Virus record (IMG/VR): IMGVR_UViG_3300025828_000014
Direction: 5' to 3' (one strand)
DNA from: a virus
Length of the DNA: 64,000 nucleotides
Every line of letters begins with the position of its first letter. Position 1 is the first letter of the stretch. Positions 3,664 to 18,020 of this stretch are shown here, piece by piece. The notes beneath the pieces are model-generated. The model had not been told where the DNA came from. It ran no database searches and saw nothing but the letters and a program-made list of their open reading frames with translations. The translations under genes and the position numbers were made by a program.

Positions 3664-4675
3664 AGTATTGTTTCAGTATGTTATTTACAGGCTCAAGATC
3701 CAATTGGTATTCATTTTGGAGCCAAGCATGGAATTGGAGAAATTGTTCAAATCGATTTTCTCCAGTTTGCCACATGTGATCCAATATTTTTTGATTGAGT
3801 ATATGAGGCGCATACAGTTGTTTTAGATCCTCAGGCATACAACTGAGATTTTGCCATTCTGGTGATTGTATCATTTCGTAGTGTATTTGCCACGTGGGAT
3901 AGTGCTGTGCAAACCAAGATTCCATTGGTTGTTGATCCAATGCATTGTATATACCCACTGCACTGTTTATAGCCAAATCAACTGCGGGTCTAGTTTGTGC
4001 AAGATCGGTCCACCAATCAAAGTGCGGTCTTTCTTGAGCTAGTGTGGGTGCACCTGGTCGCTGATACTGATTCACACAATCCAATCCATCTCTGCTAACA
4101 GTAACATGCAGTTGTTTGCAGCTGGTGAATATAGACTGTAGATAATCAGGAACTGGCACACTGTTGTTGGTATTGATTTCAACAGCAATTGTTTGCCAAT
4201 CCACATCAACCCATTCAACAAATTCTCGCAATCCGGGTGATATAAGAGGCTCACCTCCAAAGAATTTCACACGTTCTACTTGAGACCAATTGATGTTTTT
4301 GTAGTTCTCGTTGCGTAGTATGCGTTCTCCTGTAACACTGTATCCTAGGTATTTGATTTCACGTCTACTGCAACGATTGCTGTATTCGCTGCTGCACATC
4401 AAACATTCGTAATTGCACACATTGTCTACGCTGAGATCCACACTGGTTATTGCACCAGTAGCAGGTAGCTTTTGATTGAACCAATCACGCAATCCAGGTT
4501 GATTGCTACACACTGCACAGCCTGTAGGTGTTTCACCACGTAGCATTTGATCTTTGATAGATTGTCTGTCAAACTCAAGAGTATTAGGCCATGCACAGCA
4601 AGGAGTAAATGCACCCTCGGGTGTTATATGCACATTACTCCAAACTGCACTGCAAAATGTTTTACTCTTCTCCAT
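3641..4675 (-). CDS. Radical SAM protein with N-terminal twitch/SPASM-like Cys motif
   Basis: CNYECLMC (CxxxCxxC), FGGEP, N-terminal C...PCC...CxxC; start may extend to 4717. Confidence 0.85.
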   Translation of the reverse strand: MEKSKTFCSAVWSNVHITPEGAFTPCCAWPNTLEFDRQSIKDQMLRGETPTGCAVCSNQPGLRDWFNQKLPATGAITSVDLSVDNVCNYECLMCSSEYSNRCSRREIKYLGYSVTGERILRNENYKNINWSQVERVKFFGGEPLISPGLREFVEWVDVDWQTIAVEINTNNSVPVPDYLQSIFTSCKQLHVTVSRDGLDCVNQYQRPGAPTLAQERPHFDWWTDLAQTRPAVDLAINSAVGIYNALDQQPMESWFAQHYPTWQIHYEMIQSPEWQNLSCMPEDLKQLYAPHILNQKILDHMWQTGENRFEQFLQFHAWLQNEYQLDLEPVNNILKQYCEPHATC

Positions 4676-6308
4676 ATATATGTCTACGCCATTGTGAGAA
4701 CGTGTAGAGTTTTGCATCTACACAATTTATATAGTCACTGTTGTTTTGATGACGTATCACACCTGACCCTGAAACAATATCACCGTCTCTATACTTGAAA
4801 GGCTTTTGCACAGTAACGTCCACATACTCACCATAGTTGGTGCCCAGTGTAAGAAACGTAACATAGCGTCCGTTGCGTCCACGGAAGGTTCTACCATTGG
4901 CTATAACGCCTGCGAAGTTTACTCTTTCAAGAAACTTTTGTTTTACACCCATGCCAGGAGGAAAGCCTCTATGCCACCATCCTGGGTTTGAGTCTAGTCC
5001 ACGTCTATGTGCTTCGCACTGATATACCCATGGCTTGTATGAACCTTGGCAGTGTTTGAGATTGGCTCTCCAAAATGCTTCTGGGTTGTGTGCTTTTTGA
5101 TATGCAAGTGCCCAGATGAGTCTTCCGAGATTAACAGCATGAGCCCTGCAAAGTCCGAATCCACTAAGTTCTTGAAGGGCTGCCATTGCTTCTGCTTTTC
5201 TAGGATTGTTACCCAAACGTTCCACAAATTCAAGTATCTTTTCATCATTCTTTTTAGCAAATGCTCTCCTATACATATCGGCTTCATACATGTCTACACC
5301 GATGATGTTACTTATGATGTCAATGGCATCGTCCTCAAACACTATTGAATCCTGTATAACTTCTTGTGACCAGTCTTGAAACATAGCTGCTTTCTGTCTG
5401 CCCGACATAGCAACAGGTCTTACCATTGCTGTAGCAAACACACAATCCTGCACACAGGTGGGTTGTATAGCTCTAAACAGTCTACGCATAGCAGGCGATT
5501 CTCCTTGTGTAACACCTAGCACATCGCCTCTAGCAAGCAATTGACTGGTTGCTTTGTCAGTTTCTGGATAGTCTTCCAATGCTGTGTGCGGGTCTATCTC
5601 TAGTAGTTGTGATAGTCCTCTATTTGCTAGTATGTCTACCTTGAGATGTTCAAGGTCTTCTACTTCGTATTTGTCTAGTAGTATTTGATTGTCTTGTGAT
5701 ATTAATGATTTTGGTAATTGTCTAGTGAACATAACGATGCCTCCACAGTGTTTTGATATTGCTCTTTTCTTGCCTAGTAGTTTTCTTTCAATACGTTTTG
5801 CTTCAGTAGGATCAACGCCTACTGATTCATATGTAAAACCTCTAGGAAGATTACCTGTGGCGCCCAAGCGTTTGGCCGCTTCGCGTCTGGCACTCTTTGT
5901 TTTATACGTGACATAGTTGCTTAACCTAGCCGTTCTGCCGGGCCACTTTTTGAATATGCGATTCATAACTTCACCTTGTCGCCAATGTTCAAAGTCGATA
6001 TCAACATCAGGTAGGTCGTCACGGAGTGGGTTCATAAACCTCGCCACAGGAATCTTCCACTTGATGGGATCCACGTCTGTAATCCCAAGCAAGTAACACA
6101 CAAGACTGCTGCCTGCCGATCCACGTGTCATGTGCGTGAGATCCTCAGTTAGGTCTATGATATCACAAATTTGTAGGAAATAATCAGTGAAGCGTTGGTT
6201 TATTATTAATTCAAACTCTTCTACTATTCTTAATTTATATTCTGGATCATTTGGTATGGGCCTTTTAAATCTGTCCAGAAGCCTTTGCACGTTTTCTAAA
6301 TCTGTCAT
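4662..6308 (-). CDS. dnaE: C-family DNA polymerase (DnaE/Pol III alpha-like), PHP-less, C-terminal OB fold
   Basis: RGSAGSSLVCYLLGITDVDP, RFMNPLR, PDVDIDF, KVDIL, ESPAM, ADMYRRAF, CRAHA motifs. Confidence 0.92.
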   Translation of the reverse strand: MTDLENVQRLLDRFKRPIPNDPEYKLRIVEEFELIINQRFTDYFLQICDIIDLTEDLTHMTRGSAGSSLVCYLLGITDVDPIKWKIPVARFMNPLRDDLPDVDIDFEHWRQGEVMNRIFKKWPGRTARLSNYVTYKTKSARREAAKRLGATGNLPRGFTYESVGVDPTEAKRIERKLLGKKRAISKHCGGIVMFTRQLPKSLISQDNQILLDKYEVEDLEHLKVDILANRGLSQLLEIDPHTALEDYPETDKATSQLLARGDVLGVTQGESPAMRRLFRAIQPTCVQDCVFATAMVRPVAMSGRQKAAMFQDWSQEVIQDSIVFEDDAIDIISNIIGVDMYEADMYRRAFAKKNDEKILEFVERLGNNPRKAEAMAALQELSGFGLCRAHAVNLGRLIWALAYQKAHNPEAFWRANLKHCQGSYKPWVYQCEAHRRGLDSNPGWWHRGFPPGMGVKQKFLERVNFAGVIANGRTFRGRNGRYVTFLTLGTNYGEYVDVTVQKPFKYRDGDIVSGSGVIRHQNNSDYINCVDAKLYTFSQWRRHIYGEE

Positions 6309-12538: not shown

Positions 12539-12913
12539 ATGTTATTAAAAGAAATAGAAGATCAGTATCCGTATATTAGTGTAGTCGCATATGGCGGACA
12601 AGAATACGTGGGCATAATTTCAAATCAAGATCAATTTGTTACAAGTATGTTTGTATATACAGTTTTAAAAACTGAGTATGATAAAAAATTACTTTTAGAT
12701 TTAGGTGATGTCTGGTGGTGGGAATCCAACAGAATGATTCCAATTAATATATTTTTGAAAAAAGAAATTGAAAACTTAAATTATTCTTTATTAACTATGA
12801 ACAGTAAAAATGTTAAAATTGTTATTGGACCATGTGTAAATGTAAACAATTTAGCAATAAAAAGAATAAAACGCAAAAGTGTGCAACTAATTAAAAAAAC
12901 TGTTAAGCAGTAA
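12539..12913 (+). CDS. Phage hypothetical protein
   Basis: 124 aa, WWWESNRMIPINIFL motif, basic C-terminus. Confidence 0.8.
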   Translation: MLLKEIEDQYPYISVVAYGGQEYVGIISNQDQFVTSMFVYTVLKTEYDKKLLLDLGDVWWWESNRMIPINIFLKKEIENLNYSLLTMNSKNVKIVIGPCVNVNNLAIKRIKRKSVQLIKKTVKQ

Positions 12914-13463
12914 ATTGTTCACAAATTAAATTCATATGAACTACAACACTTACAGCATATGCAACTGCATGTGCTTTTTTAAAGTAGTAACTATTATCCT
13001 CTGGCTTTTTCCATACTTCTGTTTCGATCGTTTGCCATGTTTCGTTGACAAGATGCCTCTTCGCAGGCCGTATTATCGCTAACACTGCTGCTAGTTGTTC
13101 CACCGATATCGGCTTGAGCTTTCTTAGTATCTCCCCATGTCCGCTGACGTGAAACAGCAAGTTGGTAAAATCGTCGTGCTCCAGTAAGTCCCATTGTGGT
13201 TCCTTTTCCATTAGTTTGGTTAGGTGTTGTTCATCTTTAACATCATTGTAGATACTTACATTCAAAAAGTCAAGTTTGAAATAGCCTCTGTCTTCTGCTG
13301 TTTTGTAATCAATAGTAGCTAAATTGTCCACAGGATTATGAGGACACTCTGTGACATATACACCAGTGTTGTGTTTTTTACCTGTATCTAGTTTTGCTAC
13401 ACGATGAGGTATTTTTTCTAATATAACACTGCGATCAGCAAAGTCTATATCAATATCTGGCAT
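12903..13463 (-). CDS. Miniature/split DNA polymerase III alpha-like protein
   Basis: Starts MPDIDIDF; HNTGVYV, GYFKLDFLN, LAIIRP, FKKAHAVAY in DnaE order within 186 aa. Confidence 0.85.
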   Translation of the reverse strand: MPDIDIDFADRSVILEKIPHRVAKLDTGKKHNTGVYVTECPHNPVDNLATIDYKTAEDRGYFKLDFLNVSIYNDVKDEQHLTKLMEKEPQWDLLEHDDFTNLLFHVSGHGEILRKLKPISVEQLAAVLAIIRPAKRHLVNETWQTIETEVWKKPEDNSYYFKKAHAVAYAVSVVVHMNLICEQFTA

Positions 13464-13470
13464 ATCATTC

Positions 13471-13761
13471 CTAAATTAAAAATAACTGTATCATTGCAAT
13501 ACTGTTCATAACAACAAACCAAGCACACAATACTATTGCAAATGCTGCTTTACGAATCACAGTGCTAATAACTCCAAGTATACTTCCTAACAAATACATT
13601 GGAATAAAAATCTCAGTAGCAGGATCTAAAACTGTAAATGTTAAAACAGCACTTGCTGCAATTAATATTGTTGTTTCTGCCATTTCACAATAAAATGCAA
13701 CAGGTGATAGTCTATAACTTTCTTTACAAAAGTTTACAATATATTTAATCCAATTCTCCAT
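13471..13761 (-). CDS. Small membrane protein (3 TM)
   Basis: 96 aa, highly hydrophobic. Confidence 0.75.
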   Translation of the reverse strand: MENWIKYIVNFCKESYRLSPVAFYCEMAETTILIAASAVLTFTVLDPATEIFIPMYLLGSILGVISTVIRKAAFAIVLCAWFVVMNSIAMIQLFLI

Positions 13762-14152
13762 TGCGCCTCATTTCTGCACGGATTTTTGTTGCACTTATGT
13801 TGTGTATTTCTTGGCCTAAGTTATGTTCGGTAAAAGTATAACCAACACCTCTACCATAACTGATATCAACAATATTGGGCACTATCATAATAACATATTC
13901 TTTGCCGTATGTAAAGCCCTCTTTTTGTAATTCTTTTTTGATATTTTCTTCGACATCTGTAACAATAAATGGGTTATCGTCTTGTATCATAGTTCGTCCA
14001 CCTGAGGCATCTTGATCTTGTGGAACAGTTCTAATCATAATACAAACTTGTCCTGTTTCTGCTAGAGCACGTTTGAATAGTTCTGTATGACCTGGATGCC
14101 AAGGTTGCCAACGTCCAAGCATTTGTGTAGTAGGTTTAAATCTATCAAACAT
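13745..14152 (-). CDS. HxGH-family nucleotidyl(cytidylyl/adenylyl)transferase
   Basis: GRWQPWHPGH and ISATKIR motifs. Confidence 0.85.
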   Translation of the reverse strand: MFDRFKPTTQMLGRWQPWHPGHTELFKRALAETGQVCIMIRTVPQDQDASGGRTMIQDDNPFIVTDVEENIKKELQKEGFTYGKEYVIMIVPNIVDISYGRGVGYTFTEHNLGQEIHNISATKIRAEMRRNGELD

Positions 14153-14570
14153 TATTTCTTTCCATCCATCTTTTCACAACAGGCAAAAGTTGTTCGTGTG
14201 TATCGTTAAACCAATCTTCTACGTGATAATCACAATGAGCAGGTGCTACAAACATTTTGTTTGTATCTTCAAATCTACCTTCTTTGATTGTGTCCATCCA
14301 TACAGTAAAGTCAGCATTGAATTCCATACGTGCTTGATCTGTGGGCGCAACAAAATCAGCAACAGCAATCTTTCCTGCCCGCACAACACCGTCTGCTAGG
14401 TAACGCATACGCCACGCTTGGCGCATCCGTCCTTCTGGTGTAAAATCCCAGTCTGCATAATGACTGCGTATTTCATCGGCATTGATATGCACACCGCCTA
14501 TAAGTTCTGCAAACGGTTTAGCAAGGGTAGTTTTACCACTCCCTGGTAAACCAAAAACTAATATTTTCAT
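14145..14570 (-). CDS. Adenylylsulfate kinase-like P-loop kinase
   Basis: GLPGSGKTT, NADEIR, DFTPEGR. Confidence 0.8.
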   Translation of the reverse strand: MKILVFGLPGSGKTTLAKPFAELIGGVHINADEIRSHYADWDFTPEGRMRQAWRMRYLADGVVRAGKIAVADFVAPTDQARMEFNADFTVWMDTIKEGRFEDTNKMFVAPAHCDYHVEDWFNDTHEQLLPVVKRWMERNNV

Positions 14571-15861: not shown

Positions 15862-16306
15862 GTTGCTCAGCAAGCTCTTTGATTTCTTTTTTTGTAGATA
15901 TTCTAGCAAGTGTTTCTACCTCATCCATTTTCATTTCTGGATATATTTGTGCCAACAGTTTTACGGCTTTACTGCTGTCGTCTTTCTTTTTCTTCAACCC
16001 TATCCAAGGATGGAATTGTTTCTTTCCTGTTTTGCCAGCAACACATAATAGTTGCCATTGCAGTTTAACATGATTGGTGCCGCCTAGCACATTCCAATTT
16101 TTATTGTAGTATTCATTAATCTTAAACACTGCAAGTGCAGTTTTTTCATAGTTGCCTTTAACACTGCTGATATAACGATTGAGATTCCACAAATCGCCTT
16201 TGATATCTTTCTTGCCATCTTCGCCGGCAGCATCATACAGTTCTTTGAAGCCCATGTCAATGCTTGGGATAAGTTCTTTGAATAAGTCTAATTCTTTGTT
16301 AGGCAT
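15836..16306 (-). CDS. Probable clamp-loader small subunit (T4 gp62-like)
   Basis: 156 aa; NRYIS...NEY...LQWQLL...HPWI pattern; replication context. Confidence 0.6.
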   Translation of the reverse strand: MPNKELDLFKELIPSIDMGFKELYDAAGEDGKKDIKGDLWNLNRYISSVKGNYEKTALAVFKINEYYNKNWNVLGGTNHVKLQWQLLCVAGKTGKKQFHPWIGLKKKKDDSSKAVKLLAQIYPEMKMDEVETLARISTKKEIKELAEQHGFDKVDI

Positions 16307-16967
16307 TTTGTTTGTGCCACTTCACTACATCTTCTGGAGAGTTGATTTCGATGCCATCAAACTCTACTTCTACTACACCAATTTTTTGTCCGTTTTGTAT
16401 CCAACGCAATTGTTCTAGTTTTTCAATATCTTCTTCTGGAAACTTTGTGCTTGTTGTATAAACAATCTTTGACTCTCTGTTATATCCGTATACACCCAAA
16501 TGATGATCTCCATATTCTAAACTAGCACGTAAGAACCAATGCGCTCTACCTCTGCTGTGTATCATTTTAACACTGTTTGGATCATTTCGCAAGTTAAAAT
16601 CCATTGGTGTATAAGCAGTTGCTACATCGCTGTGCTGTAATGCGCCTTCTACAGCACGGATAATTTCAGGTGTAATGTCAGGCATATCGCCTTGCACATT
16701 TATATATCTATCATATTGTAAAACTTCATCAATAACACTCATACACCTGTCGGTGCCATTTGCCAGTCTGTAGTCTGTCATTATAGCACGATCACCAAAC
16801 AATGCCATTACTTCTTCGCTGTCAGCCAATACATATGTATCCAATCCAGTCTCAACACATCTGTCATACACCCGTTGAATCAATGGCACACCGTTGAGTG
16901 GGCAAAGCATTTTACGTGGTAATCTTGTGGCATTAAGTCTAGCGGGTATTAGTATTGCTGTGGTCAC
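16299..16967 (-). CDS. kdsB: CMP-Kdo synthetase (3-deoxy-manno-octulosonate cytidylyltransferase)
   Basis: IPARLNATRLPRKML, GTDR, INVQGD, HLGVYGY, EKLEQLR. Confidence 0.93.
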   Translation of the reverse strand: MTTAILIPARLNATRLPRKMLCPLNGVPLIQRVYDRCVETGLDTYVLADSEEVMALFGDRAIMTDYRLANGTDRCMSVIDEVLQYDRYINVQGDMPDITPEIIRAVEGALQHSDVATAYTPMDFNLRNDPNSVKMIHSRGRAHWFLRASLEYGDHHLGVYGYNRESKIVYTTSTKFPEEDIEKLEQLRWIQNGQKIGVVEVEFDGIEINSPEDVVKWHKQNA

Positions 16968-17734
16968 CGAAAACTCCTTACAGTTAGATTTATTTGATAT
17001 AGTTGACGAACTGTTTCGGCAAAGTCTTCTAGTCGTAGCATGTTAGGTCCATCACTAGGTGCGTTATCTGGATCAGGATGAACTTCTAAGAAAAAGTTAT
17101 CAACGCCCATGCCAGCAGCAGCACGAGCAAGAGCTGGAACATAATCCCTATTCCCACCACTACTGTCACCTTGGCCTCCTGGCTTCTGGACTGAGTGTGT
17201 GACGTCAAATACCACAGGAACAGGAAAATTGTCACGCATATACTGGATGCCAGTAAAATCAGTGACCAAAGTATTATATCCAAAACTAGTTCCTCTCTCT
17301 GTGATCCAAACTTCTCGAGCGCCTTCAGTTTTACTTAGTATGCCTTTGACATCCCAAGGTGCTAGGAATTGTCCTTTTTTAATGTTGACAATACAATTGG
17401 ACTTACATGCTTCTACAATTAAATCAGTTTGTCTACACAAGAAAGCAGGTATCTGTAATACATCTACTACGCCTTTACATCTACTTATTTGTCCTACAGT
17501 GTGAACATCGGTTAATATTTTAAAACCAGCGTCTCTAATCTTTTGAAAGTCAGGCAGTGTGTCATCAATACCTACACCACGCTTACCAGACATACTGGTG
17601 CGATTTGCTTTGTCATAACTTGCTTTGAAATAATATTCAATATCAAACAAATCACATACACGTTTACACTCTGTGGCAATTTCTAAACTTTGTTCTAGTG
17701 ACTCGTGTTGACACGGTCCAGCAATAATTCTCAT
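16964..17734 (-). CDS. kdsA: Kdo-8-phosphate synthase
   Basis: IAGPC, KASYDKANRTS, QIPAFLCRQTDL, KKGQF, ERGTSFGY, DVTHSVQ, SDGP. Confidence 0.96.
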   Translation of the reverse strand: MRIIAGPCQHESLEQSLEIATECKRVCDLFDIEYYFKASYDKANRTSMSGKRGVGIDDTLPDFQKIRDAGFKILTDVHTVGQISRCKGVVDVLQIPAFLCRQTDLIVEACKSNCIVNIKKGQFLAPWDVKGILSKTEGAREVWITERGTSFGYNTLVTDFTGIQYMRDNFPVPVVFDVTHSVQKPGGQGDSSGGNRDYVPALARAAAGMGVDNFFLEVHPDPDNAPSDGPNMLRLEDFAETVRQLYQINLTVRSFR

Positions 17735-17735
17735 G

Positions 17736-18020
17736 TTAGTCTCCATCCTTTATAATATAATAGAGATTTAATGTTTTGTCAAGTTGTTTTCTTAGTGTAG
17801 GATATTCATCTGCTAAAGCAAATAAATGTTTCCATTGATCATAACTTACTATGCCTAGAGCCTCGTTTACTGCTTCTGGATCTCCGCCTATTACCCAACG
17901 CCCGTTGTATGTGGTCTTTTTGGGCTCGTCTCTAAATCTAGCATATACAACACCATTGGCACGTTCGTATATTAAACTTTCGTGTGCTAGATCTTGTTTG
18001 GGCGGACATTCTATTATCAT
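17736..18020 (-). CDS. Phage hypothetical protein
   Basis: 94 aa, LIYERANGVVYAR motif. Confidence 0.75.
   Translation of the reverse strand: MIIECPPKQDLAHESLIYERANGVVYARFRDEPKKTTYNGRWVIGGDPEAVNEALGIVSYDQWKHLFALADEYPTLRKQLDKTLNLYYIIKDGD

Follow-up and report, generated by a model that had tools for sequence, protein, structure and literature searches.

The 186-aa protein P0001, encoded in a stretch of viral DNA of 64,000 nucleotides from IMG/VR record IMGVR_UViG_3300025828_000014 (hereafter the window), is by sequence a member of the family phrog_11778 and the C-terminal unit (C unit) of a split minimal DNA polymerase III alpha subunit (Pol III alpha) of the type found in Rak2/PA5oct/Atu_ph07-type ('group 2.2') jumbo phages. 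It probably forms an active heterodimer with a separately encoded N-terminal unit (N unit), and this heterodimer most likely works on DNA. The family has already been described by Iyer, Anantharaman, Krishnan, Burroughs, and Aravind (Viruses 2021, PMC7824862). In 'group 2.2' jumbo phages, these authors recognised a minimal Pol III alpha that comes as two separate units, the N-terminal one binding NTP and the C-terminal one binding Mg and DNA. In their survey, the split version accompanies a family B DNA polymerase (PolB) and the phages that have it carry no other Pol III domains; the split enzyme was proposed as a model of the ancestral one, and a role in DNA replication or repair was suggested (PMC7824862). 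The main interpretation of the initial annotation, made from the sequence before any database search, is supported by the data below but had been anticipated in that work.

No smaller version of the catalytic core of the bacterial replicase is known than the split mini-Pol III alpha. The family is very widespread, yet its activity, partners and role are not covered by any report that we found, and a literature search retrieved no experimental study of either unit. The split units are undiscussed in the PA5oct omics paper, in a 2026 review of jumbo phages, and in two surveys of bacterial C-family polymerases. They also went unrecognised in the RsoM2USA and Sharanji genome papers, the latter of which lists a gene annotated as Pol III DnaE.

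Coding sequence and conserved motifs

The coordinates of the features discussed here are collected in Table 1. As read directly from the sequence, P0001 begins M-P-D-I-D-I-D-F, in agreement with the initial annotation, which had described a 186-aa protein starting exactly at PDIDIDF. The in-frame codons that precede it are TAA TTT AGG AAT GAT, and the reading frame cannot be extended upstream because of this TAA, five codons before the ATG. The 96-aa gene located upstream has its stop codon at 13473-13471, so that the genes are tightly packed and read in one direction.

Alignment with E. coli Pol III alpha equates D3 and D5 with the metal-binding carboxylates D401 and D403, D7 with D405, K63 with K553, and D65 with the third catalytic carboxylate, D555. 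Residues 30-35 pair with KHCGGI of a second C-family polymerase encoded in the window (P0002, see below). The KLDFL, HxxGV, IRP and FKKAHAVAY motifs listed in the initial annotation were all located, within residues 31-169, and the profile alignment to the E. coli structure (2hnh) pairs the three aspartates with D401, D403 and D555 as it had proposed.

Table 1. Features of the C-unit locus and of related sequences (window positions, unless a locus name is given)
Feature	Position	Strand	Description
C unit of split minimal Pol III alpha (CDS)	12903..13463	(-)	P0001, 186 aa; phrog_11778; AF2 model
Shine-Dalgarno-like site AGGA of P0001	13469..13472	(-)	5 nt from the ATG; direct reading of the sequence
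PDIDIDF, residues 2-8	13440..13460	(-)	aligned to E. coli 399-MPDFDVDF
HNTGV, residues 31-35	13359..13373	(-)	strand that follows the thumb in DnaE
FKLDFL, residues 62-67	13263..13280	(-)	aligned to E. coli VKFDFL
IRP, residues 131-133	13065..13073	(-)	finger-base motif; E. coli F-R-P at 638-640
FKKAHAVAY, residues 161-169	12957..12983	(-)	E. coli 756-FNKSHSAAY
Convergent 124-aa gene	12539..12913	(+)	phrog_11637, E 7.1e-30; 11-nt overlap with the C-unit 3' end
Complete PHP-less compact DnaE	4662-6308	(-)	P0002, 548 aa; PF07733 E 6.9e-42 and finger domain PF17657
Sugar-nucleotide cluster	13745-14570 and 16299-17746	(-)	upstream of the C unit
Fused N+C form	L203:1066-2193	(+)	P0252; ENA ERZ28653423 scaffold_211374, one 2.4-kb contig
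Extra N-terminal region of an N unit	L094:1174-1488		P0003, residues 1-105

Fold and relationship to bacterial DnaE

The AlphaFold2 model of P0001 has a pLDDT of 96.7 and a pTM of 0.89, and its 17 best Foldseek matches were all Pol III alpha or PolC. Structural alignment with VIA-align gave a Z of 9.7 with residues 461-838 of Taq alpha (rmsd 3.7, 184 aligned residues) and of 9.1 with residues 400-781 of E. coli alpha (rmsd 3.8, 180 aligned residues); the next unrelated chain had a Z of 2.9. A profile of 78 family members aligned with E. coli Pol III alpha (2hnh) in three pieces, the first being 399-MPDFDVDF, the second 539-641, which includes K553-F-D555 and F-R-P, and the third 739-769, which includes FNKSHSAAYA.

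The 186 residues of P0001 thus correspond to a span of ~380 residues in DnaE, about half of which is missing. Only five residues (25-29) part strands 21-24 and 30-36 of the model at the position of the DnaE thumb, which indicates that the thumb has been deleted; its placement follows the DnaE domain boundaries reportedly laid out by Lamers and colleagues in 2006. In place of ~97 residues of finger sequence in E. coli (642-738), P0001 has ~27, and the conserved finger arginines of DnaE sit in the segment that P0001 is without. By these alignments, P0001 represents the second half of a Pol-beta-like palm together with the base of the fingers.

Compared with bacterial DnaE/Pol III alpha (2hnh, Taq 3e0d) and PolC, P0001 has a palm half and finger base that superpose (Z 9.1-9.7) and retains the equivalents of the catalytic residues D401, D403 and D555 and of K553. 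In contrast, it is 186 aa long against ~1160 aa, its chain starts after the GS loop, leaving a palm with no GS loop of its own, and it is without the PHP domain, the thumb, the distal fingers, the clamp-binding/HhH region, the OB fold, and the tau-binding domain. Sequence alignment and structure comparison accordingly found no counterpart in P0001 for several elements that the initial annotation had listed as missing (PHP, the RGS motif of the GS loop, thumb, HhH, and OB). Since the chain begins after the GS loop and a Pfam search of the 186-aa protein yielded no match to PF07733, P0001 is not a canonical complete C-family polymerase in one chain.

Family membership, conservation, and selection

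P0001 matches phrog_11778, annotated as 'DNA polymerase' in PHROGs, with an E value of 3.9e-63, residues 3-183 covering positions 8-194 of the 197 in the profile; in Pfam, a single weak, sub-threshold match to a finger domain was obtained (E 0.12). Homologues at 37-50% identity occur in 96 sequenced phage records, all of them jumbo phages, of the Rak2/121Q/PBECO4, PA5oct, Atu_ph07/Phosso, SCTP-2, and Vibrio 2.275.O types. Metagenomic data extend the family to at least 547 relatives in IMG/VR and to 421 representatives of 50%-identity clusters among 1.84 billion proteins. A megablast of the 6 kb around the gene against phage records returned no match.

P0001 resembles the C units already described (121Q gp16, Atu_ph07 gp074, and that of PA5oct) in its length, its start at DxDxD, its conserved residues, and its gene block, made up of a convergent small ORF, a structural protein, primase, and DnaB. 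It differs from those of the isolates in belonging to a marine/estuarine metagenomic lineage with 37-50% identity to them, and its phage differs from the described split-unit phages in also encoding a complete compact DnaE.

In an alignment of 78 C units with identities down to 30%, D3, D5, K63, D65, R132 and P133 are invariant, and D7, H31, G34, W91, K162, H165 and A170 are conserved in at least 90% of the sequences. Poor conservation of the Asp motifs among homologues, which the initial annotation had named as damaging to its own reading, is contradicted by the invariance of D3, D5 and D65. The other weakness that it had named, decay from a full-length dnaE, can be dismissed almost with certainty. 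P0001 is indeed short and spans part of DnaE only, but the length of the C unit stays at ~185-200 aa across hundreds of lineages, and in comparisons of P0001 with 43 relatives the median dN/dS is 0.10 (values from 0.05 to 0.19; a rough ratio, dS being saturated). Moreover, identical P0001 occurs on at least 24 contigs from independent samples, the gene has a clean start and a ribosome-binding site, and the fold is predicted with high confidence. These conservation data rule out P0001 as a pseudogene. A search for longer relatives yielded two partial matches, both probably artefactual.

The N unit in related genomes

A PF07733 search of the whole 121Q, Atu_ph07, and Phosso records revealed one match in each, at profile positions ~16-98, in ORFs of ~180-185 aa distant from the C unit. 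Their products end in G-x-G-R-G-S ... Y-x-L-D-x-x-E-F-L, with one extra residue before the stop in two of the three. When the IMG/VR contigs G001 and G002 are added, the common C-terminus is GxGRGS...EFL(R/N/K/E)-stop, and GxGRGS is kept in all N units examined. The end of the N unit is the point where DnaE continues into PDxDxD, and where P0001 begins.

An N unit was found in every related genome that was searched whole or largely (121Q, Atu_ph07, Phosso, G001, and G002). In G001, the C unit (80% identical to P0001) lies at ~61 kb, and the N unit, of 185 aa, is found ~122 kb away from it, at ~183 kb, with an 892-aa PolB at ~211 kb; the PolB proteins of G001 and G002 measure 892-899 aa. The N unit matches phrog_11127 (E 6.1e-37), and a word-limited search collected 7993 N-unit proteins at E <= 1e-5. 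Among sequenced phages, the genus tallies of N and C units are equal for Escherichia (34), Salmonella (8), Erwinia (8), Xanthomonas (4), and Yersinia (4), and stand at 10 against 11 for Klebsiella; the surplus N-unit matches are full-length DnaE-like genes of actinophages and Bacillus phages. The neighbours of the N unit include nucleotide-metabolism genes (MazG, NT5C, Thy1) and an RFC-like clamp-loader gene. One N unit, P0003, has an extra N-terminal region of ~105 residues with no Pfam match, strongly conserved in the marine clade and with no counterpart in the compact DnaE P0002.

No N unit was detected within the 64-kb window when all six frames were scanned for the motif and three N units were used as tblastn queries; all that came up was a weak match to the N-terminus of P0002. 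The longest contig with identical P0001 measures 155 kb and ends ~13 kb downstream of the gene, and in G001 the N unit is located ~122 kb downstream. P0013, present on 30 contigs and 86% identical to the N unit of G001, is a candidate for the N unit of this phage. The sample lists of P0013 and P0001 do not coincide, and the matches listed in a metagenome scan included neither an exact P0013 nor any sequence from the samples of P0001. P0021, checked likewise, showed no link to P0001. By analogy with its relatives, the genome of this phage presumably encodes an N unit. The proposal of the initial annotation, that P0001 is one of the two halves of a C-family polymerase split without inteins, the RGS half being located outside the window, is therefore favoured by the N units of all five relatives. 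The window does contain an RGS motif, which belongs to a separate and complete DnaE, P0002, and not to the missing half. As for PolB, none was found among 10 large ORFs of the window that were scanned; the others are smaller than a PolB of ~890 aa or far larger.

Evidence that the two halves act together

That the halves act together is supported by a split point that is complementary to the very residue, their common phyletic distribution, a fused form, and a complex model. The fused form, P0252, which is rare, came from a search of cluster representatives and is a 375-aa protein in which GVGRGS ... EFI is followed by an 11-residue linker, DFDID, and the remainder of a C unit. The small gene that neighbours the C unit has a convergent homologue here too (E 4e-8), which overlaps the 3' end of the P0252 gene, and for this reason P0252 is not an assembly chimera of distant loci. 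P0252 represents either an ancestor-like state that is not split or a fusion that arose secondarily; a natural N+C fusion constitutes genomic evidence that the halves act as one unit.

The initial annotation had suggested modelling the heterodimer. With the N unit of G001 as a stand-in from a relative, the complex model with P0001 scored 0.92, the best of three controls reaching 0.01; alignments were supplied for both chains, and the mark used is reached by 58 of 80 solved complexes and by 2 of 110 mismatched pairs. Three runs agreed in 100% of contacts, with a partner pLDDT of at least 92. The tightest contacts bring residues 150-151 of the N unit, just before GRGS, against residues 6-8 of the C unit, as adjacent palm strands are arranged in DnaE. 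The extra N-terminal region of the N unit also touches the C unit, through residues 3-33 and 66-79, and its contacts include C-unit residues 37-45. This model suggests that the two chains pair physically. Its high score may nevertheless stem from the solved Pol III alpha structures, because the two chains make up a fold for which many single-chain structures exist, and it indicates likeness and not binding. The suggested heterodimer was thus recovered as a well-scoring model, whose score speaks for resemblance to DnaE.

Like the intein-split cyanobacterial DnaE (DnaE-n/DnaE-c), the phage enzyme is a C-family polymerase derived from two distant genes. In the cyanobacterial case, however, the split is healed by protein trans-splicing, whereas the mini-Pol III units are without intein ends: no C-intein precedes MPDIDIDF at the start of the C unit, and the N units stop right after EFLR, without an N-intein. 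An intein-split reading of P0001 was rejected in view of these missing ends and of a fused form joined by the 11-residue linker only. As the split point lies inside the palm, the two chains would have to stay non-covalently associated.

A complete compact DnaE in the same window

A second C-family polymerase, P0002, is encoded on the same strand as P0001, 6.6 kb away. Its PF07733 match spans profile positions 14-260 of 260, and it combines RGS, PDVDIDF and KVDIL in one chain. It belongs to the widespread phage DnaE-like family phrog_405, whose members (P0002 and those of Pbunaviruses and actinophages) are, like P0001, phage-encoded, PHP-less, and of the C family. They differ in that each is one chain, at least ~550 aa long, in which the palm is complete and is accompanied by a short thumb and by fingers, P0001 being a half. 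The two proteins of the window align weakly with each other (20% over 122 residues). The best match of P0002 in the isolate database is in an uncultured 484-kb phage (LR756508.1; 36-38% identity), in which no split N or C units were found.

The presence of this compact DnaE beside the split C unit is new, and contradicts the published rule that no other Pol III domains occur in phages that have the split version (PMC7824862). This rule is a stated correlate of the family and not part of its sequence definition, and the phage of P0001 departs from it. A homologue of P0002 with 89% identity occurs in the nearest relatives, G007 and G008; no P0002-like gene was found in the incomplete contigs G001-G004, G009, and G010, and in G001 the block is conserved up to DnaB with nothing P0002-like in the next 12 kb. 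Against relatives that also carry the compact DnaE, the C unit has a dN/dS of 0.11-0.13 (again rough, with saturated dS). Thus, one sub-lineage has gained a full compact DnaE and has nevertheless retained the split C unit, on which purifying selection acts; this argues that the split and compact enzymes are not simply redundant.

The proximity and common strand of the two genes, and the retention of both in the G007/G008 sub-lineage, raise the question of whether P0001 works with, or modulates, P0002 and not an N unit. This is highly improbable: the motif set of P0002 is complete by itself, most genomes with a C unit are without a P0002-like gene, and LR756508.1 has such a gene without the split units. 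From this distribution and its converse in LR756508.1, the C-unit family evolved without P0002. The N unit remains the preferred partner of P0001.

Proposed mechanism and alternative functions

Alone, P0001 is an incomplete nucleotidyltransferase fold of the Pol-beta type, without the GS nucleotide-binding loop. Pairing with the separately encoded N unit of ~185 aa (phrog_11127), which ends in GxGRGS...EFLR, would lay the N-unit strand beside GRGS against the DIDID strand, and create one palm sheet and one active site from two chains. To this site, the N unit would contribute the triphosphate-binding GS loop and a REF-type arginine, and the C unit the three carboxylates, K63, and the finger base (R132-P133, K162, H165). 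The resulting heterodimer is predicted to be a catalytically active nucleotidyltransferase, and the argument for catalysis is the invariance of residues on both chains. The fact that P0001 alone cannot complete an active site, having no GS loop, could also be taken to mean that it is a non-catalytic accessory or a decoy, which would bind parts of the host or phage replisome. We regard this as very unlikely, since a purely structural role needs neither the three carboxylates nor K63, which are invariant in 78 diverse sequences, and since the N units examined all keep GxGRGS.

The catalytic heterodimer would most likely act as a short-patch, non-processive DNA polymerase beside the main replicase of the phage. 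A role on DNA is the most likely one because the C unit belongs to a conserved block with primase and DnaB helicase; this block and the neighbours of the N unit appear to favour DNA replication or repair. Short, non-processive synthesis is at best to be expected, given that the thumb, the distal fingers, and the clamp-binding region are missing. Templated DNA synthesis by the N-C pair is not assured, with no thumb, no clamp-binding region, no OB fold, and most of the fingers gone, and a complete compact DnaE 6.6 kb away makes a second C-family activity look redundant.

The same features leave some room, although limited, for a heterodimer that is an active Pol-beta-type nucleotidyltransferase without being a templated DNA polymerase, and that could add untemplated tails to DNA or RNA ends, produce a nucleotide signal, or take part in DNA modification. 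The deletion of the thumb and of most of the fingers, with 186 residues spanning E. coli alpha 400-781, and the missing clamp-binding, HhH, and OB regions are compatible with such an enzyme. So are the PolB of the relatives and the compact DnaE of this phage, which seem to cover templated synthesis, and the MazG, NT5C, and Thy1 genes near the N unit. It is a serious rival but, in our view, an unlikely one, as R132-P133, K162, and H165, which are kept, are motifs common to C-family polymerases, and as the C unit is tied to primase and DnaB over a wide phylogenetic distance. A short-patch DNA polymerase thus remains the reading that we prefer.

Gene neighbourhood and the convergent 124-aa gene

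The block consisting of the C unit, the convergent ORF, a structural protein, primase, and DnaB is common to 121Q, Atu_ph07, Phosso, G001, and the window, and has therefore been kept from a coliphage to Agrobacterium/Sinorhizobium phages and to the marine lineage of the window. The convergent gene encodes a protein of family phrog_11637, with an invariant WWWxxNRxxP motif and a basic KRxKRK tail. It lies in a like convergent position in 121Q, Atu_ph07, Phosso, G001, 57 IMG/VR loci, and the fused form, and phrog_11637 is present in 89 phage records with genus tallies that match those of the C unit for most genera. Travelling with the C unit across very distant phages, the gene can tentatively be regarded as its associate. 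The AF2 model of its product has a pLDDT of 78.6, and its best structural match has a Z of 4.6; no fold could be assigned, a vague likeness to small beta-barrels being all that was seen and no match reaching Z 5.

One speculative extension, which we hold to be rather improbable, is a three-part enzyme made up of the N unit, the C unit, and the phrog_11637 protein. It would be a thumb-less C-family polymerase that has the basic protein as its grip on DNA. Coupled to primase, it would extend primers and then pass them on to PolB or, in the lineage of the window, to the compact DnaE. If true, such a primer extender would be the counterpart of the Pol alpha step in a bacterial virus.

The window also contains a sugar-nucleotide cluster, here in a jumbo phage, upstream of the C unit and in the same orientation. 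It includes a cytidylyltransferase-like gene of 135 aa (PF01467, E 3e-4) and a P-loop kinase-like gene of 141 aa, for which precomputed annotation of identical contigs gives weak APS_kinase/AAA_33 matches. Further on are CMP-KDO synthetase-like and KDO8P synthase-like genes (PF02348 and PF00793).
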